64,000 bases of DNA from Polyangiaceae bacterium. Its GTDB lineage: Bacteria; Myxococcota_A; Polyangia; Polyangiales; Polyangiaceae. The notes beneath the pieces were generated by a model. That model saw only the letters and a list, made by a program, of their open reading frames with translations, was not told the DNA's origin and ran no database searches. Each line of letters starts with the position of its first letter. Position 1 is the stretch's first letter. The position numbers and the translations under genes were made by a program. Location of the stretch: NCBI GenBank assembly GCA_035439005.1, contig DAORJJ010000001.1, positions 182 through 64,181 of the forward strand, written 5' to 3'. Positions 10,786-45,449 of this stretch are shown here, one piece after another.

Positions 10786-11647
<862 letters not shown>

Positions 11648-26436: not shown

Positions 26437-26445
26437 TGTTGGGTC

Positions 26446-26631: not shown

Positions 26632-26636
26632 CGCGG

Positions 26637-28756: not shown

Positions 28757-29340
28757 GACGTGGGCTCCTCGGCCTCGGGCTCCTCGGCCGGGAAGTGCGC
28801 GGCCTGGACCGTCGCGAGCTCGCCGGAGGCCCCGACGAGCACGGCGCGGGCGCGGGCGAGGTGCCCCGGCTCGCCGTCATCGGTCGACACGAGGGCGACG
28901 CACGCGAGGGCTCGGCGTACGTGCTCCGGGGCGGCGAGCTCCGCGAGACACGCGGCGGGCACGCGGGCAAACACGACGTCGGCGCCGTCGTCGGCGGGCG
29001 CGTCTAGGAGCTCCGCGAGCCACTCGACCATGGGCTCCTCGGCCTCGGGCTCCGGCTCGTCGGCGGCCTGCTGCAGCAACGCCGCGAGGCGCGAGGCGTC
29101 GGCCTCCGACTGCACCGGCGGCGGCGGCGCTACCGGGCGGGCCATCGCGCGTACAGCCTTGCTCGAGCTGCGGACGTTGCCGCGGAGCTCCTGATAGCGG
29201 CGCCCGACCGTCGCGGCGCTGATGTCGTGGCCAGCGGCGCGGAGGCGGCGGGCCGTCTCGGGCGCGGGTACACCGGCCCGGCAGTAGTGCTCTAGCAGTG
29301 CTTCGCCGTTGTGCGACATCTTCTTACGTCGTGGTGCCAT
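28753..29340 (-). CDS. HTH-domain protein with acidic C-terminal half
   Basis: The N-terminal part, LLEHYCRAGVPAPETARRLRAAGHDISAATVGRRY, looks like a small-terminase/transposase-type HTH. It is the first gene downstream of the iteron region. Confidence 0.45.
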   Translation of the reverse strand: MAPRRKKMSHNGEALLEHYCRAGVPAPETARRLRAAGHDISAATVGRRYQELRGNVRSSSKAVRAMARPVAPPPPVQSEADASRLAALLQQAADEPEPEAEEPMVEWLAELLDAPADDGADVVFARVPAACLAELAAPEHVRRALACVALVSTDDGEPGHLARARAVLVGASGELATVQAAHFPAEEPEAEEPTS

Positions 29341-29658
29341 ATGCGTTCTTGTAATCCAATGTCCTACAGGTAAACCGATGTGATATGATGTGAGTTTGGG
29401 CCGAAAAACTCATCTGCCGCCGACAAAGTGCACCCGGAAGCCCCAATGTAGGTAGGTGTATACCGGGTGCATGATGCACTCATCGTGTGTCGGAATCGCT
29501 CCACGATGCCCCAGGAACGCCTTGCGGCCCCGGGGTGACACCTCGGGCCGTCCGGCCGGCAAAGACGCGCGAGGGTGGCAGTGGTGCGGCGCCCCCTCGA
29601 GTCCAGTCGCCTTCGTGGTGCAGGCAACTCCGGTCATGACGCCCGGGGTTGAGGGAGC

Positions 29659-29868
29659 GGTTCCGTCCCGGTTCGCGTCCCGGTTCGTCTCGGGTGTGCG
29701 AGTCGTCCCGAGTCGTCCCGAGTCGTTCCCGGGACGACCCGTGTCCAGTCGTCTTCGAGTCGTCCCCCGTCCCCCCTTCTTAGGGGGACGGGACGACTCG
29801 ACAGAGGACGGGGGGCTCGGGATGGCGCCGGAGTGAGTGAGAGGTTGGTTGGTGTCGGGGACGACTCG
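29659..29868. repeat. iteron array plus stem-loop (candidate replication origin of island 1)
   Basis: The 10-mer GAGTCGTCCC occurs directly at 29700, 29710, 29720 (variant) and 29757. Its inverted form GGGACGACTC occurs at 29731 (partial), 29790 and 29858. There are also GGTTCnnGTCCC repeats at 29659-29690. A 17-20-bp stem-loop sits at 29757-29799. Confidence 0.5.
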
Positions 29869-29873
29869 AGGGC

Positions 29874-31379: not shown

Positions 31380-31405
31380 AGCCGTAGCAGGGCCGCGGAG
31401 GTTGC

Positions 31406-31678
31406 TCACGTGGCGGCCGCCTCGCCGAACAGACTCGCCTGTCGGGGCTCCGGCTCCCCGTCGTCGAGCGCGAGAGAGGCCTCGAACGCCTGGCACTCGG
31501 CCTCGAGGCGCGCGCACTCGGCCTTCAGCGCGTCGAGCTGAGCGCGGGCGCTGGTGAGGTGTCGCCGGCGGAGCTCCGGCGAGCTGCAGGCGTCGGCCAT
31601 CGAGAGGGCCGTGCGCACGTTGCCGGAGGTGACGAGCCGTCCGTAGTTGCTTTTTGGCTGAGAAGGTGTATCTTTCAC
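31406..31678 (-). CDS. hypothetical small coiled-coil protein
   Basis: GTG at 31676-31678 is preceded by GGAG at a 6-nt spacing. Sequence includes ARAQLDALKAECARLEAECQAFE. Confidence 0.35.
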   Translation of the reverse strand: MKDTPSQPKSNYGRLVTSGNVRTALSMADACSSPELRRRHLTSARAQLDALKAECARLEAECQAFEASLALDDGEPEPRQASLFGEAAAT

Positions 31679-31760
31679 GGGTGTCTCCAAGCGCCCGCCT
31701 CCCTGGTCCGGAGTGCGGGCGCGCCCTATTTGGGCGTCCCGCGCGAGCGCGTGTGTGGTG

Positions 31761-31964
31761 TCAGGTAGCGGCGGCCTCGGCGCGGTAGGCGCGCCATGCG
31801 GCGATGGTGCGAGCCACGCGCACGCCAGCGCGGCCACGGACAGGGAGCCCGGCCAAAGCCCGCACGACCGTCTTGGGGTGGACGTCGGCCCGGTTGGCGA
31901 TGACGGCGACAACCTCGTCGGTGATGGGGCCGGGAGCGGTCGGGGCTGGTTCGTCGGGGCTCAT
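31761..31964 (-). CDS. small HTH-like DNA-binding protein (67 aa)
   Basis: Sequence includes ITDEVVAVIANRADVHPKTVVRALAGLPV. Confidence 0.4.
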   Translation of the reverse strand: MSPDEPAPTAPGPITDEVVAVIANRADVHPKTVVRALAGLPVRGRAGVRVARTIAAWRAYRAEAAAT

Positions 31965-31997
31965 GCCCCTTAGGCGTCATGGCGACCCCAGAAATCT

Positions 31998-32828
31998 TCA
32001 CTCGCGCCGTTTCTGGGTGCGCTTGCGCGACTTCGCGACGTAGTTGTGCGCCTCTTCTTCGATGGCCTCCGCGGGCGTCATTCCGACCCTTGCGCGCGCT
32101 GGCCAGTTGCCTTGGAGAACCGACATGACGGCGCCTTCGGTGGGCGTGTCGCCGAAGATGCGGGCCTCTCCAGTGACAGGATCCTCGTACTGAAACCGCG
32201 ACATTCCGGAGGCGCGAAGGTCCGTGATGGGACTGTCGGCCGCCCATGCCTGCAGCTTCGCGACGTCGACGGCGAGCGCGAGCTCCGGCTCCCTCTCCAC
32301 CTGCCTTAGAACCGCCTTCGCGGCCTTCCGGCGGGCGGCGCGGCGCTCGAAATACACGAGCGCATCCTTGGGCATCGCGAGCCACGCGACCGCGACGGGG
32401 CTAGAGCCCGTGGCCCTCAAGAGTCGCTTGCGGCACTCGTGGATCGTTGCGGCCCGTAAGCCCTCCTTCGTCTCGGGTCGCGGAGGTCCGCGCCAAAGGT
32501 CCGCGAGGGTCTCAGACTCGGTGGACGGCTCGTCGGCGCGAGGCTTGCCGATCCACCGGTTGCCGTCCCCAAGGTTGCGGGCTTGCGCGAGCTCGCCTCG
32601 CCTGTCTGCCGTGCGCGCCCACGACATCGCGAGACGCTTGGTGTCGCGCTTGACGAGGCCGGAGAACTTGCGCTCCCCGTCCCAGCGTCGACGCGCGAGA
32701 ACTAGCGCCTCGCTCACGATCTGGTCATGGTCGGGGGCGAGTCGCGAGAACTCCTCGGACAAGAGCTTCGCGGCGGCGCGGCGCGCCGCGTCGATCTCCG
32801 CGCGGGTTGGCTCTCGCGGGGCACTCAC
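31998..32828 (-). CDS. hypothetical protein
   Basis: GTG at 32826-32828 forms a GTGA overlap with the upstream stop. 276 aa, no family recognised. Confidence 0.4.
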   Translation of the reverse strand: MSAPREPTRAEIDAARRAAAKLLSEEFSRLAPDHDQIVSEALVLARRRWDGERKFSGLVKRDTKRLAMSWARTADRRGELAQARNLGDGNRWIGKPRADEPSTESETLADLWRGPPRPETKEGLRAATIHECRKRLLRATGSSPVAVAWLAMPKDALVYFERRAARRKAAKAVLRQVEREPELALAVDVAKLQAWAADSPITDLRASGMSRFQYEDPVTGEARIFGDTPTEGAVMSVLQGNWPARARVGMTPAEAIEEEAHNYVAKSRKRTQKRRE

Positions 32829-33103
32829 TCCGCGGCCCCCTCGGCCTCGTCGTCGGCCTCCGGCCCCATGAGCTCGCGGAGCCACGCGGTCACGCGCGCG
32901 ACCTCCGCCTCACGATCGGCGGCGGCTCGGATCGCGTCGAGCTTGCGGTTTTCGGCGACGGCGGCGAGGTACGCGCGGCGGTACTCCTCGCGGGTCCCGC
33001 GCTCGCGGGTGCGAGCGAACGCACGCCACGCGCGGTACATGGGGCGGAGCCCTGGGTGCACCGTCCGGAGGTCGGGGGATCCTTCGGGGCGCCGGCGGCT
33101 CAC
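32825..33103 (-). CDS. hypothetical small protein
   Basis: GTGA overlap at 33100-33103. Composition is sensible only from this start onward. Confidence 0.3.
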   Translation of the reverse strand: MSRRRPEGSPDLRTVHPGLRPMYRAWRAFARTRERGTREEYRRAYLAAVAENRKLDAIRAAADREAEVARVTAWLRELMGPEADDEAEGAAE

Positions 33104-33309
33104 GGTGACACCTCCTTGGCCACGGCGCGCAGCCGGTCCCGCACGGCCCACAGGATCTCGCACGTCTCGCCGGCATCCAGGCCGTGCTCGATGGCGAGCA
33201 TGAGCGCGGAGAGGGTGCTCGCGGCTCCCTCGATGGCGATGGCGTGCGCCTCGCTCGCGGTGATGTGACCGACCGGCGCGGCGGGCGGCGGAGGCTTGCG
33301 AGCGCTCAC
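33100..33309 (-). CDS. hypothetical small protein
   Basis: GTGA overlap at 33306-33309. Sequence: VSARKPPPPAAPVGHITASEAHAIAIEGAASTLSALMLAIEHG... Confidence 0.3.
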   Translation of the reverse strand: MSARKPPPPAAPVGHITASEAHAIAIEGAASTLSALMLAIEHGLDAGETCEILWAVRDRLRAVAKEVSP

Positions 33310-33719
33310 GTGCCCACCTCCCACGCCGCGATGGCGGCCCGTGCGGCCTCGCGCTCCGCGGTGCGCCTGTCGGCGTCCTCGGCCTCCCTCGCGAGAGACC
33401 CGAGCCCGACGACGGCGAGGGCGAGCACGACGCGCTCGGCGTAGTCGACCAGCCCGGCGAGCTGACGTGGGAGCCGACCCGCGGCTTCTGCGGGCCGCGC
33501 ACCCTGCAACATCGCGATGAACACGCCGGCGTGTCGGCCGGTGACCGTCGAGCCGTCCGGGGTGACGAGGGTCACCGGCTCCGGGGTGACGCTCATGAGC
33601 GCGTCGGCCTCGTGGTCGCACGCGAGGGAGGCCGAGACGTAGACGTCCTCGCTCGAGAGGTAGACCAGGATCCCACCCTCGACTCGGCGGGGCGCCGTCA
33701 CGTTCACGGGGCCGCTCAC
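33306..33719 (-). CDS. hypothetical protein (137 aa)
   Basis: ORF with high GC3 and a 4-nt overlap with both neighbours. Confidence 0.4.
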   Translation of the reverse strand: MSGPVNVTAPRRVEGGILVYLSSEDVYVSASLACDHEADALMSVTPEPVTLVTPDGSTVTGRHAGVFIAMLQGARPAEAAGRLPRQLAGLVDYAERVVLALAVVGLGSLAREAEDADRRTAEREAARAAIAAWEVGT

Positions 33720-33925
33720 GTGCCCACCTTCTCTCCGGAAAGTGCGCTAGAAGTAGCGGACTTCTTCCCGGCGTTCGGGTAGGTGCTCGCGGTCGGGCAC
33801 GTCGGCCGGTAGGGCACCGGCATCTCGTCGGGCGCGGGGCTGGTAGGCCAGTAGGCGATCGGGGTGATCGGGGTGTCTTGCCGCGTGCGCTGCGCGCGGC
33901 TCTTGGGTGTGCTAGTCTGGTCCAT
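33716..33925 (-). CDS. hypothetical small protein (69 aa)
   Basis: ATG preceded by AGGAG at an 8-nt spacing. Confidence 0.4.
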   Translation of the reverse strand: MDQTSTPKSRAQRTRQDTPITPIAYWPTSPAPDEMPVPYRPTCPTASTYPNAGKKSATSSALSGEKVGT

Positions 33926-34062
33926 GCTGATGTCTCCTGTTCGGGGCTAAGGCAACCGTGCGGCTCGCCGTGTCACCGGCGGGCCGTGCCTCTTTTGTCT
34001 GTGGGCGTCATGCCCACGCGTCGATCCCTCTCCGGGGAGAGAGACCGATGCGCGGGCGTGAC

Positions 34063-34755
34063 TCATGCGGCGAGGCGAGCAGCGCGCAGCCCGCGCATCC
34101 ACCGTCGGTGTGCGGGGTGCTCCCATCGGCGCCAGTTGAGCGGGTGCGCCTCGGCCAGCGCCTCGAGCTCGTCGGGTCCGAGGGTGCCGTGCTCCAACAG
34201 TGCGGCGGCCACGGCGCGAACGGCGGGCCAGTGCGCCGCGAGGAAAGCCTTCGTCGCGAGGAACTCGCGCGTGAGGGCGCGCGTGGACGTGGCGTCACTG
34301 GCGCGCGGGTAGGCGATCCACAGCGCCTCCTGTGCACTGGCGTAGTCCCTGGTCCAACACGATGCGCATTCGAGCCACACGAGAAGGTCGCCCTCGCACT
34401 CTGCGAGCTCGTCATCTGGAGCGAAGCGGCGGGCCCCGGTGAGCACCTCTTCGGCCGCGACGCCCGCGAGGTGTACGCGCACCTCGAGCAGCGCCATACC
34501 CCGCCTGAACCCTAGCGCGTGGCCAAGCTCGCGCGCCCGGCGGTCGCGAGCCGCCAGCGCATAGGTCGCCTGTCGCATGTGCCCCCACGAGCGGCCGGGC
34601 GTCGGCACGATCGTCAGCAGGCGCGGCCGCTCGGGTGCTGCCGTCGAGCCGCGCCAGCGCCACGCCGCTAGCAGGTGTCCGGCCTCGTGATACGCGGTGA
34701 GGGTGCGCTCGGCCTCGCGTTGGGCCTTCGTGCGGCGCTTCGGCTTCGGTCTCAC
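34063..34755 (-). CDS. stand-alone HExxH metalloprotease (FtsH/M41-like catalytic motif)
   Basis: TAYHEAGHLLAA mirrors the FtsH VAYHEAGHAL zinc site. GTG start preceded by GAGGAG. It lies immediately downstream of the cI-like repressor gene. Confidence 0.55.
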   Translation of the reverse strand: MRPKPKRRTKAQREAERTLTAYHEAGHLLAAWRWRGSTAAPERPRLLTIVPTPGRSWGHMRQATYALAARDRRARELGHALGFRRGMALLEVRVHLAGVAAEEVLTGARRFAPDDELAECEGDLLVWLECASCWTRDYASAQEALWIAYPRASDATSTRALTREFLATKAFLAAHWPAVRAVAAALLEHGTLGPDELEALAEAHPLNWRRWEHPAHRRWMRGLRAARLAA

Positions 34756-34871
34756 AGGCTGGTCTCCTCGGGCGCACGCCTCCGCCGGGCGACTTGCCCG
34801 CGCGATGCGTGACCCGTAGGAGTGTTCTTAACTTCGCATCACGATCGCGTCAACCGCAATCGGATATAAAG

Positions 34872-35468
34872 TCACTCGCCAACGATCACGATCTCTGAAT
34901 CGTCGACGTCCTCAACATCGGCGACCGCATCGCCGGCCGCGGCCGGCTCGACGTGGCGGCGGAGGGTGTCCAGCGTCCAGCGGAGGCGGTTCACCTCTTC
35001 GGCCAACTCCATGGTCGCGTGCATCCGGGAGACCAGATCCAGGGCGCGAAGCATGGTCTTCCGGTCCTCGGCCGCGTAGCCCCACGTCTTCGCGGCGAAG
35101 ACCGCCACGAGCACGTCGCGGGCGTCGGCGCTCGGCGCCCACCGGGCCGACACGTGCGCGGCCATCTCGTCTACCCCGGCCAGCGTCAGGACCGCGGCCC
35201 TCTCCGCTGGCTTGCGGCGCTCGCGCTTCACGGCGACGTCAACAGTGCGGCGAAGGTGCTGGCGCACTTCCTCGTCGGGGCGACCGGCCAGCTTCGCGGC
35301 GTCGAGCAGCGTTTGCGGGGCGAGGCGGCCGGTATTGAGCGCGGAGCTGACGCGCGACTGATTGATCCCCAGCTCGCGGGCGAGCTCGCGCTGGGAGCGC
35401 GTCGCGAGCAACTCCCGGAAGATGCTCTGCACGTAGTCGCGTGTTTCCGGGGGTACTCCGCGAGCCAT
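34872..35468 (-). CDS. cI-like HTH (XRE-type) repressor
   Basis: The internal ATG gives MARGVPPETRDYVQSIFRELLATRSQRELARELGINQSRVSSAL (HTH). It is divergent from a cro-like gene. Confidence 0.6.
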   Translation of the reverse strand: MARGVPPETRDYVQSIFRELLATRSQRELARELGINQSRVSSALNTGRLAPQTLLDAAKLAGRPDEEVRQHLRRTVDVAVKRERRKPAERAAVLTLAGVDEMAAHVSARWAPSADARDVLVAVFAAKTWGYAAEDRKTMLRALDLVSRMHATMELAEEVNRLRWTLDTLRRHVEPAAAGDAVADVEDVDDSEIVIVGE

Positions 35469-35475
35469 GCCCCGA

Positions 35476-35504
35476 ACCTTAGGCGCGATGCGCGAGCCAT
35501 GCAA
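35476..35504 (-). promoter_or_regulatory. candidate sigma70-type promoter of the cI-like operon (near-leaderless)
   Basis: On the minus strand: TTGCAT, 17 nt, TAAGGT. The -10 element ends 7 nt before the ATG. Confidence 0.3.
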
Positions 35505-35511
35505 GCGCGGC

Positions 35512-35540
35512 TTGACGGGCCACAAAACCAGCGCTACGAT
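35512..35540 (+). promoter_or_regulatory. candidate sigma70-type promoter of the cro-like gene (near-leaderless)
   Basis: TTGACG, 17 nt, TACGAT. The -10 element ends 9 nt before the ATG at 35550. It lies back-to-back with the cI-side promoter. Confidence 0.35.
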
Positions 35541-35549
35541 CGATCTCCG

Positions 35550-35795
35550 ATGCGCACGAAGCCCCGAACGCGAGCCGCAATCGAGCTTGCCAGAATCATG
35601 ACGGCGCGGCGCCTGACACAGCAGGCGGTCGCCGATCTGCTCTCCCAGCGCGTGGGCCGTCGGGTCTCGCAATCCAGCGTGAACCGTGCTCTCACTGGCA
35701 CCTCGCCGGGCGGTGACCTCCTGTCGGCGTACGCGGTGCTCTTCGGGCTCGACGTCGCGTTGTGGAGCGAGCCCGCCGACTCGCAGGCGGCCTAG
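35550..35795 (+). CDS. cro-like HTH protein (81 aa)
   Basis: The HTH is AAIELARIMTARRLTQQAVADLLSQRVGRRVSQSSVNRAL. It is the only plus-strand gene of island 1. Confidence 0.55.
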   Translation: MRTKPRTRAAIELARIMTARRLTQQAVADLLSQRVGRRVSQSSVNRALTGTSPGGDLLSAYAVLFGLDVALWSEPADSQAA

Positions 35796-36566
35796 GTCTA
35801 GAGGTCGCGGCGCACCGTAGAAGCGCCGACAGGTCGCGGTGGACGATGCCGCGGGCGCGACCTTTCCGGCCACGGACCGGAAACCCCGGGGAATCCCGTT
35901 GCGCGCGCGGCGAGCGCGCACGTAAACCCGCAGGAAACGGACGGGCGCGAAACCGGGGGCGGGGTTTTTCTCGACGTTTTGGCTCGGCCGCGAGAAGAAA
36001 CACGGGCTTTCTGGGTGGGGCGGCGCGCAGTCCTCACGGCGAACTTATGATGCGGACCAATCTGGCCCGCATCGAGACGGGCTCGTTCGCGTCGAAGCAT
36101 GGTGGGTATTGCCCACCATGAACAATTCCGCGGTTTTGCACTGAGCGGTGCAGAACCTCCCGGTGCTCCCACGTCGCCCTCTCTGGCCTCCATCGGGCCA
36201 CCCCGGACCGTTGCCAGTGTGGCTGGCAACGCCTGGCGAGGTGCGTCCGCGTCATGCGGGTGCAATGACGGCCGCGGGCGAGTCACCCGCATGACGCGGA
36301 CGGCTGGCGTTGGGCGGGTGTCGCCTTCACCGGCTCGTCGTGTTCTACTTCGAGGCTCGGCGGCGCTCGAGCTCGTCACGGACGGCGGCCGCGAGCACCG
36401 GGCGCAGAGCGTCGAGGAAGGCCGCGGTGAGAGGGTCGGAGGCCTCGGAAATCTGGTCCGGACCAGGTCCCAAACCGGCCTCTAGTTGGCATTGTTCGTT
36501 GGGTATCGCCGCGCTCGACGGGTCGGAAACATCGGGAAGCATGGGGGTGCTCTCTTTCGGTGTCGA

Positions 36567-36590
36567 TTCGAGTCCTGCAGTCGGAGCCAT
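36567..36590. repeat. attR core of island 1 (copy of the tRNA-Asn 3' end)
   Basis: Exact 24-bp copy of 23864-23887. It is followed by the tRNA's presumed original terminator. Confidence 0.85.
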
Positions 36591-36712
36591 TCAAGCGGGG
36601 TCGCGGAAACGCGACCCCGCACTTTTTAACAGCGGCCTCGGAGAGCGATCTCCGGGGCCGTTGCGTTTCTCCCCCACGTTTCCGCGACCTTCGACGCTCG
36701 GCGAGCACGACG
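36582..36712. repeat. left ~130-bp direct repeat flanking island 2
   Basis: The sequence cggagccattcaagcggggtcgcggaaacgcgaccccgc...gcgagcacgacg recurs at 42262-42391 with about 8 differences. Confidence 0.85.
36595..36627 (+). terminator. rho-independent terminator (original tRNA-Asn terminator)
   Basis: 11-bp GC stem (GCGGGGTCGCG / CGCGACCCCGC) with a GAAA loop, followed by a TTTTT tract. A degenerate copy sits at about 42275-42307. Confidence 0.7.
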
Positions 36713-36875
36713 CGCGCGTGGACAGCGTTCGCGCAGAGAGCGCCGCCGGCGTGAAGGAGCGCGCGCCGAGGGCGTTCTGGACGGCGTTCGCGCTCTCTCT
36801 TCTGGCCCGCGGGGAGAGAGGAACCGAGAGCGTTTAACAGCGGAGCCCGTTTTCGCGGGACGGAGCCGCTGATGG

Positions 36876-37961
36876 TTAACTGGCCAGCGCATCGGCGCCC
36901 TCCATCGACGTCGCGAAGGGGCACAGCGCGGGCGCGCAGCCCGCGCACGGAGCGGCGCGTCCGGAGCAAGCGTCCCCTCGCGCCACGCGGTTGGACTTCG
37001 AGCAGAACGCGTAGAGCGCCTGCTGGACGAGCCTCGGCGAGTAGCTCGGAAGGTCCGGCCGGAACTCGCGCAGGTCGAGCTGGGCGGCCTGCTCGCGCAC
37101 CCACCGCTCGCGCGCGTCGTAGGTCTTGGCTGCACCCGGCTCGCGAAGCGCGTCCACTGCACGCGCGACGTTCGTGTCCACCACGACGAGGTCGTTGCCG
37201 TCGATGTCGGGGAACCACGGCGTGAGCCCCGGAGCGAGCGCCGGCGTGGAGAGCGCGCTCACGAACATGGTCGCGAGTCTGCGCCCGACCCGGTGGACGC
37301 GCGCGAAGCGCTCCACGAGTCGCGCGGCTCGCTTCGCTGGCGAGGCCTCGTCGCGGCAGACCTCGGCGAGCACCTCGCGCACGCCGCCGTCCTTCCAGAG
37401 CCGAAGCCACGCGGAGGTGGGCAGCTTGCCCATGTCCCCCATGCGGTTGAAGACGGCCGTGGCGTCTTTCACGTGGCAGGCCGTGCCGGGGCACCTACCG
37501 CAGTCGACGGCCTCGCCGACCTTCGCGACGTCGCAGCCCTCCTCGAACGCGTCGGCCGTGCGCAGCACGGGGCACTCGTGCCGAGCGATCGACCGCTTCA
37601 CGGTGGCGGCGTCCGCGACCACGCGCATCGATGCGCGCGGGAGCGACTGCTGCTGCCGCATGATGACCACGTCGCGCAGCGCCTGGTACATCGAGAGCGT
37701 GACGAAGAGGCCGAAGATAGCGGCGTCGCCACCCGCCGCGAGTTGGTCGGGAGCGACGGCGAACGCGCCCACGCGGCTGGGGTCGCAGTAGAAGGGCAAG
37801 CGCTCGACTTGCCCCTCGTCGAAGTACCAGGCCACGGCGCGCGTCAGCTCGCGAACGGGTTTCGGCACAACAGGTCTCCTGCCAGTCACCGAGGTCCGTC
37901 GCCGTGCCACTGCTACCTGCAGGCCAAGCACGGACAGCGCCGCGAGCCGTTCATCCTTCAC
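36876..37961 (-). CDS. EndoIII/MutY-superfamily-like (HhH, [4Fe-4S] cluster loop) protein
   Basis: - HhH-like segment: VHRVGRRLATMFVSAL.
- VVVDTNVARAV, which parallels EndoIII IAVDTHIFRV.
- C-terminal Cys cluster: C-x6-C-x2-C-x4-C (CSGRAAPCAGCAPALC).
- An extra central Cys cluster: C..C-x10-C-x2-C-x4-C.
- GTGA overlap with the HEPN stop. Confidence 0.45.
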   Translation of the reverse strand: MKDERLAALSVLGLQVAVARRRTSVTGRRPVVPKPVRELTRAVAWYFDEGQVERLPFYCDPSRVGAFAVAPDQLAAGGDAAIFGLFVTLSMYQALRDVVIMRQQQSLPRASMRVVADAATVKRSIARHECPVLRTADAFEEGCDVAKVGEAVDCGRCPGTACHVKDATAVFNRMGDMGKLPTSAWLRLWKDGGVREVLAEVCRDEASPAKRAARLVERFARVHRVGRRLATMFVSALSTPALAPGLTPWFPDIDGNDLVVVDTNVARAVDALREPGAAKTYDARERWVREQAAQLDLREFRPDLPSYSPRLVQQALYAFCSKSNRVARGDACSGRAAPCAGCAPALCPFATSMEGADALAS

Positions 37962-38683
37962 GTGTGGCCTCCTGGCGGCGGTGCTCCCGGTAGCGCGGGA
38001 GTTGGAGCAGCTGCCGCCGGCGGTGGCGCTCGCCGAAAGCTCGCCGCCTGGACTGCCGTGCCGAGCACCCCCTCAAGCGCCTCCATCAGGCGGAGTACGA
38101 GGTTGCGGTAGTCCTCGATGTCCGAGTCGTCGAGCGCCTGCTCGCGACCGCCATGGGCGATGTTGTTTCGCCGATTCACCAGGGCATCGAGCTTCTGGCG
38201 GTGGTCGCGCATCGGTTCGATGTCGAGGCACAAGCATCGTGCGAGGCCTTCGAGGACCTTGAAGAACAGGTTCGACTTCGTGTCGATCTCGCGCTCTCTT
38301 TGCTCAAACGCCAGCACGTCGGTGAGACTGCCAAGAAACCGCTCGATGACTTCGACCTTCCGTTCGTGGGTCAGTTCTCCCGAGAGCTTGCGGAAGGACC
38401 CGGACCACGAGTAGGCGAGCAAGTTCGCGTGGACGTCGCGTTGGGCCACGGCGCTGCGTTCGAGGAACTCCACGTAGAGCTGCAGAGCCTCCTTCGCGAA
38501 CCCCTCCCAGTGCGCGTAGAGCATCGGGATCGCCATTGCGCATGCCCGCTGATGCAAGACGGTATCCTTGTGCGCGGCCACTACGCGGACGGTCTCAGTG
38601 AGCGCCGTGCGGCGGCGATCGAGGCAGTCCGCGATGGCCCCGCGCAACGCCGTCTCGGGATCGGGAGCAGGATTCGGTGGCAC
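37958..38683 (-). CDS. HEPN-domain protein (MAE_28990/MAE_18760-like, DUF262-associated type)
   Basis: LVNRRNNIAHGG contains the HEPN Rx4H motif. GTG at 38681-38683 is preceded by GGGAG and lies 2 nt after the DUF262 stop. An alternative ATG start (MAIPMLY) lies further in. Confidence 0.6.
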   Translation of the reverse strand: MPPNPAPDPETALRGAIADCLDRRRTALTETVRVVAAHKDTVLHQRACAMAIPMLYAHWEGFAKEALQLYVEFLERSAVAQRDVHANLLAYSWSGSFRKLSGELTHERKVEVIERFLGSLTDVLAFEQREREIDTKSNLFFKVLEGLARCLCLDIEPMRDHRQKLDALVNRRNNIAHGGREQALDDSDIEDYRNLVLRLMEALEGVLGTAVQAASFRRAPPPAAAAPTPALPGAPPPGGHT

Positions 38684-38685
38684 CG

Positions 38686-39828
38686 CTACGCTCCCGAGAC
38701 GATGCGTTCCGCCGTTGCTAGTCTCTGAAGCAGCCGCGGCTTTGTGTTCCCACCCGAGCCGACGGCCGCCTTGAAGTCCTCGTCGGTCTTCACCGCGTTG
38801 AGACGTGCAGCGCGGTCTTCCTTGCTCAATGGCTCGAACGTCGCGATGTGTCGTGCGACCGCGACCGTGAGCGCCTCGAAGACGTAGACAGAGAACGCCC
38901 CCTGCGCCTTCCCATCTCGAACGTGGCGCCACGACTCATCGCCAAGGGCTCCCGTGATCGCACGGATCGCGCGCTTAAAGAGAGACGCCTCGACCTCCCG
39001 ATCGAACGCGGCTTCGCCATCCACGACCTTGTGGACGTACTCGGTGATGAACGGCTCGACGTCATGCTTGAACTCGTTGATGTCGTTCTTGAGAGCAAAG
39101 AAACGAAGAACCAAGCCGCGATCGTAGAGCGACTTCTGCTGGTTCTCCGAAAGACCAAGAAACGTTTGCAGCGGTTCGAGCTGTGCAAGCCCGTCGAAAA
39201 AGGTCATCAGGTCCGGAGCCTCAGCCCTGAAGATGCAGTTCCGGATTTCCTGGTCGGTCAACCGGGCGCCCCCGGTATTGAGTCGCTCGAACAGGTCGTA
39301 CTTCATGCGGCGACCGCTTCCGACCTTGACGACTTCCACGCGGCAACCAGCCCGTCGAATCGACAGGCGCGTTCGAAGTGTGAGATCCTCGAAGCACTTT
39401 CCGTCGAGGGAAGGGAGCGAGGCTCCCTCATCTGCCGCTAGTCGCGACGGGGGCACGGCGACGGCGTCGGCGTCTCGTAACACGCCAAAGAACTCAAGAA
39501 CCGTCGAAAGGCGCTGAAGGCCGTCCACCAGCTCCCAGACGCCATGCTCCGTCTCCGCAACGAAGATCGCCGGCGTCGGAATGCCCAGCAGGATCGATTC
39601 GATGAAACGGCCCTTTTGCGCCTGCGTCCATCGGAACAGGCGCTGGTACGCAGGTGCCACGACCAGTTCCTCGCGCTCGTACATGTTGGCGAATTCGCCG
39701 AACGTCATGTCTAGCTTGTCCGTTCGGATGTCGGACCGCTTGCTGTCGATCTGCTCGTCGAGGGATAGCGCCTTGAACTCCGCGCCGCGCGTCTTCTTCA
39801 TGGCATTCCGTTCCTCTTTGTCGGTCAC
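38686..39828 (-). CDS. DUF262 (ParB-like/GmrSD N-terminal) domain protein lacking a DUF1524 nuclease half
   Basis: YQRLFRWTQAQKGRFIESILLGIPTPAIFV...WELVDGLQRLST carries the DGQQR-type motif. 380 aa. GTGA overlap with the MTase stop. An alternative ATG lies at 39801. Confidence 0.8.
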   Translation of the reverse strand: MTDKEERNAMKKTRGAEFKALSLDEQIDSKRSDIRTDKLDMTFGEFANMYEREELVVAPAYQRLFRWTQAQKGRFIESILLGIPTPAIFVAETEHGVWELVDGLQRLSTVLEFFGVLRDADAVAVPPSRLAADEGASLPSLDGKCFEDLTLRTRLSIRRAGCRVEVVKVGSGRRMKYDLFERLNTGGARLTDQEIRNCIFRAEAPDLMTFFDGLAQLEPLQTFLGLSENQQKSLYDRGLVLRFFALKNDINEFKHDVEPFITEYVHKVVDGEAAFDREVEASLFKRAIRAITGALGDESWRHVRDGKAQGAFSVYVFEALTVAVARHIATFEPLSKEDRAARLNAVKTDEDFKAAVGSGGNTKPRLLQRLATAERIVSGA

Positions 39829-41135
39829 GACCGTCGCTCCAGCACGACCACAGCCTCGCGGTAGTGCTTCTCTGCGCGGTGCTTTCGCGAGTGCGGATTG
39901 ATCTGAGACATGGCTCGTCGCACTTCCACAGCGGATGCGACCTGCCCTTCGAAGCCGACCGCTCGAGCGCAGTCGACGTAGAGTTCGGGGAGGTCCACCG
40001 GGATCTCCTTGTAGTAGGAGCTCTGGACCACGAGAACCGCTGCGCCACGTCCGCGAACCACACGGTAAATCTCCCGCAGGGACTTCATCACGTCGTCAAA
40101 ATACTGCCAGTACGTGCGGAAGTAGTACGAGTGCGATGCTTTGCTCGGATGCTCCTGGATCCGCGTGAGGACGCCCCTGACCGCGTCTGGCCAGTCCGAC
40201 GGTGTGGAGGGCAGGTCCTGGGTGCGCGAGAGCGGCGTTCCCATGGACGTTCGACGCAGCTTCTCGAAGAACGCGCTTTCGACGCCAACGCCGAGTGCGG
40301 CCAACTCAAAGGATGCACTGACGATGTAGTCGATGCGCGTGCAGTACGGAGGCGACGTGAGGACTACATCGACCGAACCATCGGACAGCGGAAGCGAGCG
40401 GCAGTCCGCCACGCCCAGCTCTCCGTTCCACGCACGAGGAGGGGCCGTCGAAGCCGAGGAGTTGAGGTCTTCAGCCATCGCGGCCACGTGCTCTACCCAC
40501 CTGGAGCCAAAGTTGCGCCCGGAACGGCGACGCTCTTCACTTGGCCGGATCCATGTGGGATTCGATCCGTGCTTCACCGAGGCGAAGCTGCGCGCGGTTC
40601 TGATCAGTGCGAGCAGCAAGAAGGCAGCCAAAGGCGGGAGCCCGTCGCGCCCCGGCTCGAGCACCGTGCCAGACGGCGTGCTCGCGAGCTCAGCAAGCAG
40701 GGTACCTTCAATTCCTCGATACTGAGCGACCGACGAAGGTCCCAACCAGGCGAGGAGCGGATCATTCGCTCCGGGTAGTCTGGCCGGCGTCGACGCAAGT
40801 CGCCTCGCAAGTCCCGTCACGTGAAGTGCATCTTCAGGGTGCGCCAACTTCGCGGCCGAAACGATCGAGAGCACAGGGTTGATGTCAAAGCCGAACGCCG
40901 TGTGGCCGAGGCGGTGTGCGATCGACGTCGTGGTGCCGCTCCCGTTCCAGGGATCGAGTACGCGAAGCGACCCGGCTTCGCTGAGGCCGCTGAGAAGGTC
41001 TTCGACGAAACCGCCTGCGTAGCCCGCGTAGTATGGGAACCACCCTTGGGTCCCGACGCGCTCTGAGCCCGTCCGTTTGGCATCGAGCTGGAGCTTCCAC
41101 GCAAGCTTCAACACGGACTCGGCGACGTTCGGCAT
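39825..41135 (-). CDS. DNA amino-methyltransferase (motif I before motif IV; SPPY type, probably N4-cytosine)
   Basis: VLDPWNGSGTT is AdoMet motif I. About 230 aa later, VVLTSPPYCTRIDY is motif IV. The start is set to the ATG at 41133-41135. The upstream part of the track ORF is junk. Confidence 0.8.
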   Translation of the reverse strand: MPNVAESVLKLAWKLQLDAKRTGSERVGTQGWFPYYAGYAGGFVEDLLSGLSEAGSLRVLDPWNGSGTTTSIAHRLGHTAFGFDINPVLSIVSAAKLAHPEDALHVTGLARRLASTPARLPGANDPLLAWLGPSSVAQYRGIEGTLLAELASTPSGTVLEPGRDGLPPLAAFLLLALIRTARSFASVKHGSNPTWIRPSEERRRSGRNFGSRWVEHVAAMAEDLNSSASTAPPRAWNGELGVADCRSLPLSDGSVDVVLTSPPYCTRIDYIVSASFELAALGVGVESAFFEKLRRTSMGTPLSRTQDLPSTPSDWPDAVRGVLTRIQEHPSKASHSYYFRTYWQYFDDVMKSLREIYRVVRGRGAAVLVVQSSYYKEIPVDLPELYVDCARAVGFEGQVASAVEVRRAMSQINPHSRKHRAEKHYREAVVVLERRS

Positions 41136-41152
41136 GGGTCTCGGCACCCCTT

Positions 41153-41430
41153 TCACGTCAGCGCCAGCACTTTCATCGCCGCCGTCTTCGGGTCGCCGAA
41201 GAAGATCGGGTCGACGTGCTCCATGATGTCGGCGCTGACATCGAGGGTCGGGTAAGGATCCCCCTGCGCACCGGTGCAGGGTACCCGGACCTAGCTCTGC
41301 CAACAAGACCCGACTAGAGTCGAGAACAATGGATGTGCGCCATTGTCCTACACCGCGGACTGGTTTCATCCAGGATTCTCGCTGCTGCCTGCACCGAGGC
41401 CGCGAGGTTCGAGATGTTCTTGACGGTCAC
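41153..41430 (-). pseudogene. remnant of the AbiEii toxin gene (internal deletion)
   Basis: GTGA overlap with the abiEi stop. The first ~20 codons (VTVKNISNLAASVQAAARIL) look like an AbiEii/DUF1814 N-terminus, followed by frame breaks. A short C-terminal piece (DIMEHVDPIFFGDPKTAAMKVLALT*) ends at 41153. Only ~280 bp are present where ~900 bp would be expected. Confidence 0.4.
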
Positions 41431-42032
41431 AGCGAAGCCTCCAGGTAGGGTCGCATCGCGCGCTCGACGTGGCGCATGCGGGCGTACCTCAGGAGGACGT
41501 CGAGCTTCTTCTTGCGGTGCTCGCGCCACAGTTTCAGCGCCTCCAGCACGACGTCCATGCCGAGCTGGTTCCGGTAGCGGAAGCAGTCGACGAGGGTCTT
41601 CTCCGGGTCGTAGATGCGAACCGGGACGCCGTCGAGCTCCTGCGTCTCGATCCCCTCGTGGAACGCGGGCCCCGAGAACCAGTAGAAGCGCGTCGGCGGG
41701 TAGTCGAGGCGCGGTTTCGTCTTGCCTCGCGCGAGCGCCACGTCGATCACATGCGGCACCTGCGTCGTCAGCTCGTGGAACGAGAGCGCCGAGACTAGGC
41801 AGACCACGCCCTGCGGGACGCGCTTGGCCACCGTGACGAGGTCCGGATGAGCGAGTGGCTCGAGCGACGCGAGGCGGTACACCCCTCGGGAGACCGCTTC
41901 TAGGACGCCTTCGTCGCGCATGGCGTAGAGCGCCTTACGGTTGATGCCGAGGCGCAGCGCTTCGGCCATACGGAGGCCGCCACCATGCTGGCGGAACAGC
42001 TCGACCTCACGCTCGTAGACCCTGGCATTCAC
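41427..42032 (-). CDS. abiEi: AbiEi-family type IV antitoxin / transcriptional regulator
   Basis: LRMAEALRLGINRKALYAMRDEGVLEAVSRGVYRL is a winged HTH. The C-terminal AbiEi_4-like region is PQGVVCLVSALSFHELTTQVP...VRIYDPEKTLVDCFRY. Confidence 0.75.
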   Translation of the reverse strand: MNARVYEREVELFRQHGGGLRMAEALRLGINRKALYAMRDEGVLEAVSRGVYRLASLEPLAHPDLVTVAKRVPQGVVCLVSALSFHELTTQVPHVIDVALARGKTKPRLDYPPTRFYWFSGPAFHEGIETQELDGVPVRIYDPEKTLVDCFRYRNQLGMDVVLEALKLWREHRKKKLDVLLRYARMRHVERAMRPYLEASL

Positions 42033-42261: not shown

Positions 42262-42391
42262 CGGAGCCATTCACGCGGGGTCCGCGGAAACGCACCCCGC
42301 ATTTTTTGACAGCGGCCTCGGAGAGCGATCTCCGGGGCCGTTGCGTTCTTCCCCACGTTTCCGCGACCTTCGACGCTCCGCGAGCACGACG
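42262..42391. repeat. right ~130-bp direct repeat flanking island 2
   Basis: About 94% identical to 36582-36712 by hand alignment. It retains only the last 8-9 nt of the tRNA (cggagcca). Confidence 0.85.
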
Positions 42392-42465
42392 TGCGGAAGG
42401 CCGAGGTGTACGCGCACCGCTATGCGAACTTCCGTGAAGGGCTGCGCGTGGACCACGCCCTCCCC

Positions 42466-44535
42466 TCACTCCCGCCCGAAGAGCCTCATCAGCCACGCCC
42501 AGAAGCCCGTGGCCTTCGGCTTGGCGACGCCGCGCTGGGAGGGTGGCGGCCGCGCGCCGACGCTCTTCGGGGGCAGCTTCGCGCCGACGCGGTCGCGGCC
42601 GAGGCGCTCGAGGACCTCGTCGGAGGTCTGCTGCGTCGTGAGCTCGTGCGTGGTCTCGAGGCCGGTCGAGAGGTTCTTCGTGGTGACCGTGAGGATGCAC
42701 TCGTTGCTGAGCGAGAAGGTCACCTCGAGCTTCTGCGGGGCGTTCGGATCGTCCTCGGCGCCCTCGCCGGCCTTCCGCCCCGAGCTCGCGGCGAGCGGCG
42801 CGACCGGGCACGTGAACGCGCCCAAGAACTCGTTCGACTTGGCGTATTGCGCGTCGCCCTGGAACACCGCGACCTCGAGCGGCTCGCCGGGCGCCGCCTC
42901 GAGCTGGAGCTTCGCCTCGGCGGGGAGCGTCGCGTTGCGCGCGAGCACGATCTTCATGAGCCCGTCGGGCTCGGCGATGCCGATGGGCAGCGGCAGCACG
43001 TCGGAGAGCACGGGCGCGTCGGCCTTGTCGTACATGGTGGCGAGGATCGCCGCGCCGAGCGCCACCACCTCGTCGGGGTGCACCCGCTTCGACGCCTTTC
43101 GCCCGAAGTGCTCCTCCACCATCGCGATCACGAAGGGCATGCGCGTCTGGCCGCCGACCAGGAGCACGTCGTCGATGTCGCGAGGCTTCAGCCCCGCGAT
43201 CGCCAGCGCGTCGTCGCAGATGCGCATGGTGCGCTCGACGACGGGCTTCGCGCGCGCCTCGAACTCCTCCCGCTTGACCGTGTAGTTTACATCGATCGTG
43301 GTCTTCTCGACGCCGGTCACGCGCAGGTTCGGCACGGACGCGGTGGCGGTGCGCTGCTCGGAGAGGGTGTGCTTGAGCTCCCTCGCGGCGGCGAGGATGC
43401 GCTCCTCGCCGCGGCGGTCGAGGCCCAGGCGATCGCCGTGCTCGGCGGTGAGGCGCTCGCGCAAGAGCGCGGCGAGGGCGTTGTCGATGTCGACGCCCCC
43501 GAGGAACATGTCGCCGGCGGTCGCCAGCACGCGGTACACGCTGCCCTCGAGCGAGAGGATCGACACGTCGAACGTGCCGCCGCCGAGGTCGAACACCAGG
43601 ATCTTCTTGCGCTCGCCGCTGCCGTGGCCGAACACGAGGCCCGCCGCGGTGGGCTCGTTCACGATGCGCATGAGGTCGAGCCCCGCGCGCTGCGCGGCCG
43701 TGCGCACGGCGCTGCGCTGGTTCTCGGTGAACGCCGCCGGCACGGTGACCACCACCCGCGTGACGGGGCGGCGCAGCTCCGACTCGGCGACCTTCTTGAT
43801 CTCCGCGAGGATGCAGGCCGCGATCTCGGTGGGCGAGAGCACGCGCTCGCCGAGCTTGATGGCGACCATGCCGTCCGGATCGGCGGTGAGCCCAAACTTC
43901 ACGTGAGCGTTGAGCTGCGCGGCCAGGCTGCTCGTGTAGGTGCGGCCGATGATGCGCTTCGAGCCGTACACCACGTTCTCGGGCTCGAGCACCATGCGGC
44001 GCTCGGCCAGGTGCCCCGCGACCGGCAGGCCCTGGTCGTCGAACGTGACCATCGACGGGATGGTGTTGTAGCCGAGGCGCGAGCGGATGACCTTGGGCTC
44101 GCCGTTCTCCACGATGGCGGCGCAGGTGTACGTGGTGCCGAGATCGATGCCCACCACCGGCGCGCTCGCGTCGATCGCCTTGCGCGGCGGCGGCGGCGCC
44201 GGGGCGCGCTCGAGGGCGTGGCGCACGTCCTCGCCGCAGCCCACCTCCACCCGCACCACCTGGAGGAGCATGCCGGTGCGGCCCTCCTCGCTCACCGTGC
44301 CTACGACGAGCACGTCGGCCGCGCAGATGCGCACGCGCCCCTCGCGCGTGAGGGCCTCGAGCTTCATGGCCGTGCCCACCGGCGGGGCCTGGGGGTTCGG
44401 GAGGAAGATGCCCTCGGGGCTCGTGTTGCTCGTGAGGATGCGCGCGAGCTCCGCGTCGTCCGCCGCGAAGACCCGGAACACCCCCGCCGCTCGGCCGGCG
44501 CCGTCCGCGCTGATGCGCCTTGAACTATCGCTCAC
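42466..44535 (-). CDS. Hsp70-family protein with ~120-aa PilZ-like N-terminal extension
   Basis: VVGIDLGTTYTCAA, VVTVPAAFTENQR, ILVFDLGGGTFDVSIL and DDVLLVGGQTRMP are Hsp70 ATPase motifs. The N-terminal extension contains NTSPEG, which fits the (D/N)xSxxG PilZ motif. Confidence 0.85.
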   Translation of the reverse strand: MSDSSRRISADGAGRAAGVFRVFAADDAELARILTSNTSPEGIFLPNPQAPPVGTAMKLEALTREGRVRICAADVLVVGTVSEEGRTGMLLQVVRVEVGCGEDVRHALERAPAPPPPRKAIDASAPVVGIDLGTTYTCAAIVENGEPKVIRSRLGYNTIPSMVTFDDQGLPVAGHLAERRMVLEPENVVYGSKRIIGRTYTSSLAAQLNAHVKFGLTADPDGMVAIKLGERVLSPTEIAACILAEIKKVAESELRRPVTRVVVTVPAAFTENQRSAVRTAAQRAGLDLMRIVNEPTAAGLVFGHGSGERKKILVFDLGGGTFDVSILSLEGSVYRVLATAGDMFLGGVDIDNALAALLRERLTAEHGDRLGLDRRGEERILAAARELKHTLSEQRTATASVPNLRVTGVEKTTIDVNYTVKREEFEARAKPVVERTMRICDDALAIAGLKPRDIDDVLLVGGQTRMPFVIAMVEEHFGRKASKRVHPDEVVALGAAILATMYDKADAPVLSDVLPLPIGIAEPDGLMKIVLARNATLPAEAKLQLEAAPGEPLEVAVFQGDAQYAKSNEFLGAFTCPVAPLAASSGRKAGEGAEDDPNAPQKLEVTFSLSNECILTVTTKNLSTGLETTHELTTQQTSDEVLERLGRDRVGAKLPPKSVGARPPPSQRGVAKPKATGFWAWLMRLFGRE

Positions 44536-44663: not shown

Positions 44664-45449
44664 ATGCCGCGCACGCCTCGCTCGCTTCGCACGCCTCGCT
44701 CGTCTGCCTCGTCTGCCTCGTCCGGTCTCGCACGCCTCGCGCGCTTCGCTCGCTTCGTGGCGGTCGCCGCGGTGCCGCTGAGCTCCGTGTACGCCTGCAC
44801 CACGAACGGCACCGCCATCCCCGACGAGGACGCGAGCAGCACCACGGTGCCCCGCACCGACGGCGCCTCGCCCCCCACCGACTCGGCCACCGGCGACGCG
44901 GCCCGCCCCGACGCCCCCGCCAGCTTCGACCCCACGAAGGTGTGCGCGCAAGAGCTCGAGTATTTCGCCGCGTGCAAGGCGCCGCCGAACGACATCAACT
45001 GCACCGCCGCGAAGTTCGAGGCGTGGTGCACGCTGAACCAGGCCGCCACCGACAGCGCGCAGCGGGTGCGCGCGCGCGCCGCGTGCCTCGACGTGAAGCA
45101 CTGCGATCCGAACCTCCTGAAGGACTGCCTCTACAAGTCGTACAACACGCAGCAGCAGACCCCGGCGCAGGCGAAGCTCGTGGCCGACTACTGCGCCACC
45201 TGCGAGCCCGGCGACGGCACCTGCCCGACCCGCAAGATCGCCTACGACGCGGCCAAGGGCCCAAACTCCATCGACGACGTGTACCTCGCCGCGTGGGAGC
45301 TCTCGGAGGCGCTCACCGTGGCCATCGACCAGAAGTGCACCGGCCCCGCCATCGCCGACGCGGGCGCCGACGCGGGCAGCTGCCAGAAGCGCTTCGGCAA
45401 CTGCGCGGGCAGCCTCTTCGTCGACGCTCTCCCCGACTGCCCAAAATGA
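44664..45449 (+). CDS. secreted Cys-rich lipoprotein
   Basis: Repetitive basic n-region, lipobox SVYAC, and 14 Cys in the mature part. Confidence 0.5.
   Translation: MPRTPRSLRTPRSSASSASSGLARLARFARFVAVAAVPLSSVYACTTNGTAIPDEDASSTTVPRTDGASPPTDSATGDAARPDAPASFDPTKVCAQELEYFAACKAPPNDINCTAAKFEAWCTLNQAATDSAQRVRARAACLDVKHCDPNLLKDCLYKSYNTQQQTPAQAKLVADYCATCEPGDGTCPTRKIAYDAAKGPNSIDDVYLAAWELSEALTVAIDQKCTGPAIADAGADAGSCQKRFGNCAGSLFVDALPDCPK

Follow-up and report, generated by a model that had tools for sequence, protein, structure and literature searches.

A stretch of 64,000 nucleotides (nt) from a Polyangiaceae bacterium (NCBI GenBank assembly GCA_035439005.1, contig DAORJJ010000001.1), referred to below as the window, was analysed with regard to four genes located between positions 36876 and 41135. 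The G+C content of the window was approximately 72%, and its homologues point to a myxobacterial origin. The four co-directional open reading frames (ORFs) reported in the initial annotation were present on the minus strand, and they encode, in the order of reading, a DNA methyltransferase (MTase), a DUF262 protein, a HEPN protein, and a predicted endonuclease III (EndoIII)-like protein, here called orf361. The initial annotation had regarded them as a single undescribed, modification-linked defence system. The features of the locus are as follows (aa, amino acids).

39825-41135, minus strand: MTase gene, 436 aa, ATG start; first gene of the MTase-DUF262-HEPN trio
38686-39828, minus strand: DUF262 gene; start at GTG 39828 (GTGA overlap) or at ATG 39801 (with a Shine-Dalgarno sequence)
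37958-38683, minus strand: HEPN gene, 241 aa, MAE_28990/RiboL-PSP family, Rx4H motif RRNNIAH
37869-37957, minus strand: spacer, probably non-coding, from the HEPN stop to the likely orf361 start; AGGAGA Shine-Dalgarno sequence at 37875-37880
36876-37868, minus strand: orf361, predicted EndoIII-like protein of HhH-GPD fold, approximately 319-330 aa; the maximal ORF reaches 37961 (361 aa)
41153-41246, minus strand: brxL 3' remnant, final 94 nt, approximately 30 codons (28-31) and stop
41427-42032, minus strand: intact AbiEi antitoxin gene (PADLOC AbiEi, E-value 1.2e-70; Pfam AbiEi_4)
36582-36716, plus strand: left copy of a 135-bp direct repeat, comprising the last 9 nt of a tRNA-Asn gene, a strong terminator hairpin, and 80 nt of the 3' fragment of an abhydrolase gene
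42262-42395, plus strand: right copy of the direct repeat, approximately 91-93% identical to the left copy
36638-36754, plus strand: alpha/beta-hydrolase gene remnant, last approximately 38 codons, convergent on orf361

The initial annotation had also described all four genes as translationally coupled. This could be upheld for the first three, which are tightly joined as read directly from the sequence, with a GTGA overlap between the MTase and DUF262 genes and a gap of 2 nt between the DUF262 and HEPN genes. It did not hold for the fourth, whose GTGA overlap depends on a start at GTG 37961. Homology of orf361 with all its relatives starts only near residue 38 (around position 37849), the GTG at 37868 is preceded at a distance of 6 nt by the AGGAGA Shine-Dalgarno sequence, and the gene calls on 98.5%-identical contigs place the start at the equivalent of 37835. 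These observations favour a spacer of 90-123 nt between the HEPN stop and orf361, which appears more likely than translational coupling. A scan of the region revealed no sigma-70-like promoter, which is a weak test at 72% G+C. Predicted terminators showed no excess over shuffled sequence, save for the hairpin following the tRNA fragment, and an Rfam search of the 33-45 kb region returned nothing relevant.

Relation to type-1 BREX islands

An identical 241-aa HEPN protein was found on four public metagenome contigs, in which the gene order is PglX-PglZ-BrxL-MTase (436 aa)-DUF262-HEPN followed by a 319-aa homologue of orf361, that is, the trio lies within a bacteriophage exclusion (BREX) island. 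Window positions 36881-41246 were 98.5% identical to two of these contigs, L090 and L091 (the contigs and loci compared are designated by L numbers), both of which carry PglX-PglZ-BrxL upstream, and the spacer at 37869-37957 was 100% identical to that of L090. The homology to both contigs ends exactly at position 41246, inside brxL and 94 nt before its stop codon. The resulting brxL remnant, which had been missed in the initial annotation, lies directly upstream of the MTase gene, its stop being 17 nt from the MTase ATG. It shares 93% aa identity with residues 651-678 of the 679-residue BrxL of Archangium, and 90% identity at the nt level. No BREX gene beyond this brxL tail could be found in the window; thus, the type-1 set brxA-brxB-brxC-pglX-pglZ-brxL is incomplete in the window, while it is complete in the near-identical contigs.

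On the far side of the junction, the adjoining element initially described as a remnant of an Abi-type toxin-antitoxin pair proved to contain an intact AbiEi gene. This is followed by approximately 25 codons resembling the N-terminus of AbiEii (GTG 41430, overlapping the AbiEi stop), after which the reading breaks. The truncated AbiEii is thus a putative assignment read from the sequence, and hidden Markov model (HMM) searches gave no confirmation because the peptide is too short. A single deletion running from AbiEii into brxL would explain both the brxL tail and the putative AbiEii stub. The ancestral order would have been PglX-PglZ-BrxL-(MTase-DUF262-HEPN)-orf361, which is intact in the near-identical contigs. 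Sequence comparison shows that the window has undergone a deletion by which the AbiE locus, putatively truncated, was joined to the final 94 nt of brxL. Since the BREX-intact contigs match the window and the window retains only the brxL tail, the cassette is probably the deletion remnant of a type-1 BREX island holding two functionally independent modules, the trio and orf361, and not one four-gene system.

The opposite view, in which the four genes form one system whose MTase marks DNA, whose DUF262 protein reads the marks, and whose HEPN and/or glycosylase-like protein serves as effector, draws on the genes being co-directional, closely spaced, and kept as a block in the 98.5%-identical contigs, and on locus L037, in which a DUF262 and HEPN pair lies 3.4 kb from an orf361 homologue. 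Co-conservation of all four genes, however, was confined to those contigs, where the intact form of the block lies inside a complete type-1 BREX system. The genomic context of orf361 homologues was inspected in about 90 loci. Beyond the near-identical contigs, no trio locus held orf361, and none of the approximately 86 other orf361 loci adjoined the trio; the four-gene reading therefore fails on its own co-conservation test. Moreover, the junction between the third and fourth genes is probably a 90-123 nt spacer, and the two parts differ in composition and divergence: the G+C content at third codon positions (GC3) was 0.89 for orf361 against 0.75-0.79 for the trio, and identity to L090 was 93-97% for orf361 against 99.4-99.7% for the trio. 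A single system is accordingly regarded as very improbable. In addition, orf361 together with the alpha/beta-hydrolase 3' fragment is shared with Archangium and with a deltaproteobacterial metagenome-assembled genome (MAG) at 83-91% nt identity. The GC3 values, the divergence, and the shared hydrolase fragment point to recombination and horizontal transfer in which orf361 formed a junction.

A further possibility is that the window locus is decaying and largely non-functional, with BREX deleted, AbiEii truncated, and the putative catalytic lysine of orf361 lost, so that no defence function is expressed. The brxL and putative AbiEii remnants at the deletion junction (41246), the lysine-to-arginine change at residue 228 of orf361, which occurs in the window copy only (n = 82), and the outcome of the promoter scan, weak as this test is at such a G+C content, are consistent with decay. 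Yet the four ORFs are intact and all other invariant residues are kept, the counterparts of the trio in intact islands match it at 99.4-99.7% identity, and the trio appears from genomic comparison to act as a stand-alone unit in other taxa; the lysine-to-arginine change may also remove lyase activity only. Overall decay is therefore considered rather unlikely, and the remnant of two separable modules is the preferred reading.

The MTase-DUF262-HEPN trio

The domain assignments given to the three proteins in the initial annotation were borne out by profile searches. The first protein could be assigned as an amino-methyltransferase (Pfam N6_N4_Mtase, 1.7e-8; PADLOC MTase_II, 1.4e-22). Its motif I (LDPWNGSGTT) and motif IV (TSPPY) were both present and were invariant in four homologues; the distance between them had been overestimated, motif I lying approximately 199 aa before TSPPY and not approximately 230. 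The gene showed 99.4% nt identity to L090. The second protein matched Pfam PF03235 (GmrSD_N, 1.7e-22) alone and carries the DGLQR motif, which is invariant among the DUF262 homologues; as previously described, no DUF1524 domain is present in the cassette. Its best PADLOC match was NsnA (1e-58, positions 32-380 of 385), and it also matched PD-T4-2_A (PDLC04027) at 9e-40 over profile positions 44-361 of 363. The third protein, with the RRNNIAH (Rx4H) motif, matched Pfam PF18737 (HEPN_MAE_28990, 9e-26) and PF18735 (RiboL-PSP, 2e-24), and its residues R172, N173, and H177 were invariant in the homologues.

The breadth of the trio was assessed from three loci obtained in a scan of genome contigs with the DUF262 protein, together with four context look-ups. 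Trios without orf361 were found in several lineages, with the following identities to the window proteins (MTase/DUF262/HEPN).

Polyangiaceae MAGs (L004/L005): 51/73/63%, beside BrxD and a BrxHI-like helicase; split by an insertion sequence (IS)
Pirellula (L006): 34/32/31%, beside a PglW-like NERD-kinase
Stenotrophomonas maltophilia (L092): 49/65/56%, beside resolvases
Methylobacterium (L094): 34/53/38%, with a stop codon interrupting the MTase

The Stenotrophomonas trio keeps the same 4-nt gene overlaps. In L004 and L005, the IS element (rve transposase and HTH_Tnp_1) lies between the MTase and DUF262 genes, at 3694-5607 of L004 and 6014-7927 of L005, and the BrxD and helicase genes are located upstream. 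On this genomic evidence, the trio is a self-contained, translationally coupled, and apparently horizontally mobile unit, often located in or beside BREX loci.

The trio had been taken for an unrecognised architecture. A neighbourhood of MAE_28990 HEPN, ParB, and methylase genes had, however, already been noted in a comparative genomic study (Anantharaman et al. 2013), which gave it no name, mechanism, or experiment. That neighbourhood has the same gene content as the first three genes of the window and the same Pfam family (PF18737), while no BREX embedding was described for it, unlike in the window lineage. The closest validated relative is PD-T4-2, a two-gene anti-T4 system of E. coli consisting of a DUF262 protein and a HEPN protein of PF18735 (Vassallo et al. 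2022). The DUF262 protein of the trio matches PD-T4-2_A over its full length, also lacks the DUF1524 nuclease half, and is partnered by a RiboL-PSP/MAE_28990-type HEPN protein with Rx4H. The trio differs in adding a coupled SPPY MTase, which overlaps the DUF262 gene by 4 nt and is co-conserved across four phyla. Two further differences concern the profiles: the DUF262 protein scores higher on NsnA than on PD-T4-2_A, and the HEPN protein, in spite of its PF18735 domain, gave no match to PD-T4-2_B even at E <= 10, a point against equating the two. On balance, the trio is most aptly classed as a PD-T4-2-type variant that carries a methylase.

Two other assignments were considered and rejected. 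The match to NsnA of the Menshen system (NsnABC) implies a ParB-DUF262 domain with a C-terminal DNA-binding region in the trio protein; the trio is nevertheless not Menshen, because the NsnB ATPase and the NsnC inPIN-nuclease are absent and the neighbours are instead an MTase and a HEPN protein. An identity with type IV enzymes of the GmrSD/SspE/BrxU group was likewise rejected, since PF03235 occurs by itself and the cassette contains no DUF1524.

With these domains, a self-marking MTase, a sensing DUF262 protein, and a HEPN effector form a reasonable model of the trio. The SPPY methylase would mark host DNA, while the DUF262 protein, as a ParB-like NTPase and DNA-binding protein, would survey DNA. 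On meeting unmarked or foreign DNA, it may release the HEPN protein, the predicted RNase effector, by which infection would be arrested or aborted. This retains the main part of the mechanism proposed initially; the additional suggestion that the glycosylase-like protein serves as an effector of the trio was not supported.

The orf361 family

The motifs reported for orf361 were all found, namely VGRRLATMFVSAL, VVVDTNVARAV, and the C-terminal C332-x6-C339-x2-C342-x4-C347 loop. Searches against Pfam, NCBIfam, and PADLOC returned nothing usable for this protein even at E <= 5-10. A sequence profile search of the PDB gave only sub-threshold EndoIII matches (E of approximately 2), in which the motifs were again collinear. 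The AlphaFold2 model had a predicted local distance difference test (pLDDT) score of 89.5, and its top 35 Foldseek matches in the PDB were HhH-GPD glycosylases (MUTYH, OGG1, MjOgg, AlkA), with probabilities up to 0.99, TM-scores of 0.35-0.55, and a best E-value of 0.047. Against viral models, the top matches were EndoIII and an amino-acid:DNA transferase (AADT), both at a probability of 1.0. An hhalign comparison with E. coli Nth, using a manually entered Nth sequence, gave an E-value of 0.051 with the GRK, VDT(H/N), and Cys4-loop motifs collinear; in this alignment, K228 and D262 of the orf361 family would correspond to K120 and D138 of Nth, and the C-terminal cysteines to its [4Fe-4S] loop. 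Since the Foldseek, hhalign, and sub-threshold PDB matches concur, the remote EndoIII/HhH-GPD call of the initial annotation is supported at the level of predicted fold and motifs, and not at the level of Pfam thresholds.

Residues Q93, D97, C130, C143, C154, C162, C332, C342, and C347 are among the invariant positions of the family, and K228, D262, and C339 are among the near-invariant ones, in close and distant clades alike. Four of these residues (C130, C143, C154, C162) make up a second Cys4 set, likewise invariant and associated with a beta-hairpin. Codon 228 (window 37280-37278, AGA) specifies arginine in the window copy, whereas the other 81 of the 82 copies, including those of the 98.5%-identical sister contigs, have lysine. 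The likeness to EndoIII, MutY, OGG1, and the DEMETER-type iron-sulfur (FeS) glycosylases comprises the predicted fold and, as putative counterparts in collinear order, the Lys of GRK, the Asp of VDT(H/N), and the C-x6-C-x2-C-x4/5-C loop. The protein differs from these enzymes in lacking significant sequence similarity, in approximately 120 extra N-terminal residues, in the second Cys4 set, and in its occurrence in defence islands and not in a housekeeping context.

An exhaustive HMMER search among 1.84 billion representative sequences placed the family at 172 clusters at 50% identity. Close homologues were 72-90% identical across Corallococcus, Archangium, Hyalangium, Chondromyces, and MAGs, and a distant clade extends to Planctomycetes. 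No relatives could be found in a scan of the viral contigs of IMG/VR or by tblastn against the plasmids of PLSDB. By our own tally, where the sequence upstream covered at least 3 kb (40 loci), recognisable defence genes were present in approximately 34. In approximately 35 loci, the orf361 homologue directly follows the terminal gene of a defence system on the same strand, usually with a gap of 2-45 nt. The systems located upstream were as follows.

BREX-3-like operon (PglY, N6_N4 MTase, SNF2, PglZ, 248-aa gene): approximately 11 loci
DUF1156-DUF499 (Hma, or 'BR'): at least 10 loci
Type-1 BREX, with BrxL
IetAS, with IetS: 4 loci
Pbe, with PbeC and a 114-aa gene: 3 loci
DndFGH/SspFGH-like module, with DndH/SspG-like genes
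Lone MTases

A few copies depart from this pattern: in L055, L060, L081, and L096 the gene is divergent from, convergent with, or upstream of the system, and the surroundings in L034 and L052 are unrelated to defence. In L096, the DndH-like gene is followed by a gene for a 359-aa protein without family match (11080-12159, minus strand), which is convergent with the orf361 homologue. Other cassettes occur between the core genes and orf361: a GTPase-associated system (GAPS; GASH and GAP1-N1) lies after BrxL in L029 (3613-9953), and a Ser/Thr kinase with a 402-aa protein lies after DUF499 in L016 (7039-9977). Both insertions occupy the place that the trio takes in the window lineage. Two identities were tried for orf361 and rejected. 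DruD of Druantia was considered as distant homologues follow a protein with the PF14236 DruA domain; PADLOC identified these neighbours as SspG/DndH-like, and no DruD match was obtained. A fixed chromosomal anchor gene was also considered, and the far-side neighbours were found to vary (abhydrolase and arg genes, transposases, kinases).

The most parsimonious reading of orf361 is a stand-alone accessory defence gene, glycosylase/apurinic-apyrimidinic (AP) lyase-like, that rides at the 3' end of larger operons. Its product may attack phage DNA containing non-canonical bases, backing up modification-based systems as GmrSD or BrxU does for BREX, and as the Dag and Brig glycosylases do alone. The best functional analogy, at the level of fold and context, is offered by Dag1, Dag2, and their relatives, single proteins of the HhH superfamily that occur in defence loci and excise modified phage bases (Getz et al. 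2025 preprint; compared here by description), and by Brig1 (2024), a defence DNA glycosylase. Differences from this group are a putative FeS loop and an additional Cys4 module in orf361, and its typical place at the 3' end of large multi-gene systems and not in an integron cassette. Brig1 has a uracil-DNA glycosylase (UDG) fold. Auxiliary effectors of the BrxU/GmrSD type embedded in BREX and Hma (Picton 2021; Payne 2024; BREX survey 2026) resemble orf361 in being independent effectors or cassettes that are inserted into BREX and DUF499/Hma loci or attached to their end, and differ in being HNH, restriction endonuclease (REase), TOPRIM, or HEPN proteins as opposed to glycosylase-like ones. The 2026 BREX survey names HNH, REase, HKD, TOPRIM, HEPN, PIN, and Schlafen auxiliaries and no glycosylase, the words 'glycosylase' and 'HhH' not being in its text; the orf361 family therefore appears to be undescribed in the searchable literature.

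Several observations weigh against a stand-alone accessory glycosylase. The Pfam models HhH-GPD (PF00730) and PF10576 remained below threshold for the family (PF00730 reached 0.074 at best, in 2 of 34 members), and the Foldseek and hhalign E-values are weak (0.01-0.05). R228 occupies the position that aligns with the Schiff-base lysine of EndoIII, so that the window copy may be impaired, in a locus where BREX is also deleted. Conservation this strong (72-90% identity across myxobacterial genera) is not usual in an effector exposed to phages and would fit a repair enzyme as well. The strict co-directional placement at the 3' end, at distances of 2-45 nt, could reflect a functional dependence of orf361 on the upstream system.

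The last point leads to the possibility that orf361 properly belongs to BREX, Hma, and Dnd-type systems as their terminal component or effector, performing base-flipping interrogation of modification or a DNA-damaging step, with the trio inserted before it. Same-strand placement with a very short gap to the last core gene in approximately 35 loci argues for this, and the GAPS of L029 and the kinase of L016, which also sit between core and orf361, follow the pattern expected of embedding; the mechanism of BREX is, besides, still unresolved. The partners, however, are mechanistically unrelated, comprising the N6-methyladenine (m6A)-based BREX and Hma, the phosphorothioate (PT)-sensing DndFGH-like module, Pbe, and the ATPase-protease IetAS. 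Moreover, the divergent, convergent, upstream, and non-defence copies listed above do not fit, orf361 is missing from the majority of BREX and Hma systems in other phyla, and the family comprises only 172 clusters at 50% identity. We therefore judge a terminal component unlikely. The same degree of doubt applies to the more specific proposal that orf361 is an undescribed FeS EndoIII-like base-flipping enzyme acting as a portable terminal effector or sensor for BREX types 1 and 3, DUF499/Hma, DndFGH/Ssp-like systems, and Pbe. If this were true, orf361 would supply the DNA-damaging or modification-reading step that those systems are not known to encode, and the trio would be a cassette embedded upstream.

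A role in repair or self-protection, in which orf361 removes lesions or mis-modified bases arising from the neighbouring modification or nuclease machinery, is less probable still. Repair genes linked to methylases are familiar, as with Vsr or Mig.MthI next to 5-methylcytosine (m5C) methylases and AlkB with DNA methyltransferases (DNMTs). Strong purifying selection (72-90% identity across genera), the putative EndoIII-like catalytic dyad with the predicted FeS loop, and the fact that most partner systems modify or nick DNA are all consistent with such a role. There is no obvious common lesion, however, because the partner chemistries differ (m6A, PT, and none for IetAS); in addition, most genomes that encode these systems have no member of the family, and orf361 shows the location and turnover that characterise the cargo of defence islands. 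The accessory glycosylase/AP-lyase-like gene is hence retained as the preferred reading of orf361.

Flanking elements and wider significance

The surroundings of the cassette had been described as an integrase-less island. This is true of the 5.5-kb segment itself, which contains no integrase; the neighbourhood as a whole is not integrase-less, since an integrative element at tRNA-Asn abuts the cassette on the left. The element (23811-36590) lies at the tRNA-Asn gene (23811-23886) and carries a tyrosine integrase gene (23822-25162, minus strand); on the right it is bounded by 24 nt that repeat the tRNA 3' end exactly (36567-36590). The following genes were also located in it.

29874-31517, minus strand: DnaB/AAA_25 helicase
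34063-34755: short M41-peptidase-like ORF
34872-35921: helix-turn-helix (HTH)/sigma-r4 protein

Just upstream of the tRNA-Asn gene lies a gene for a RhuM-family virulence protein (22663-23736, plus strand; Pfam 1.4e-107).

The two copies of the 135-bp direct repeat (36582-36716 and 42262-42395) bracket the region from orf361 through AbiEi. The repeat could have arisen by duplication of an attachment (att) site or could be a recombination scar; a dispersed repeat family was considered and dropped, as only two copies occur in the window. Immediately to the right of the repeat is a gene for an Hsp70-family protein (42466-44535, minus strand; 689 aa, with an N-terminal extension of approximately 125 aa), which presumably belongs to the core genome. 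Short direct repeats of 9-nt periodicity (CGCACGCCTCGCTCGCTTCG...) are present at 44670-44766 in a GC-rich region.

The hydrolase fragment at 36638-36754 showed 100% aa identity to residues 240-275 of the 277-residue abhydrolase of L003, the only locus in which this gene is intact. Fragments of the same gene were also found downstream of orf361 in distant genomes, including Archangium, at 11111-11247 of L002, 5040-5150 of L010, and 933-1031 of L073. This suggests that the block of orf361 and hydrolase spread by transfer together with flanking DNA. The mosaic divergence of orf361 and the travelling fragments of flanking genes exemplify the exchange of defence cassettes beside a conserved anchor gene.

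Reading the apparently novel four-gene system as a probable BREX-island remnant with two separable modules guards against the naming of a spurious system. The methylase-bearing DUF262 and HEPN trio, a widespread variant present in at least four phyla, may serve as a tractable model of a ParB-like sensor that couples DNA modification state to an RNase. The orf361 family, for its part, represents a predicted FeS HhH-GPD-fold family outside Pfam, NCBIfam, and PADLOC; in Myxococcota and Planctomycetota, it recurrently takes the terminal position in at least six types of defence system. A decision between an autonomous anti-phage glycosylase and a functional part of BREX and Hma would bear on the question of the BREX effector.

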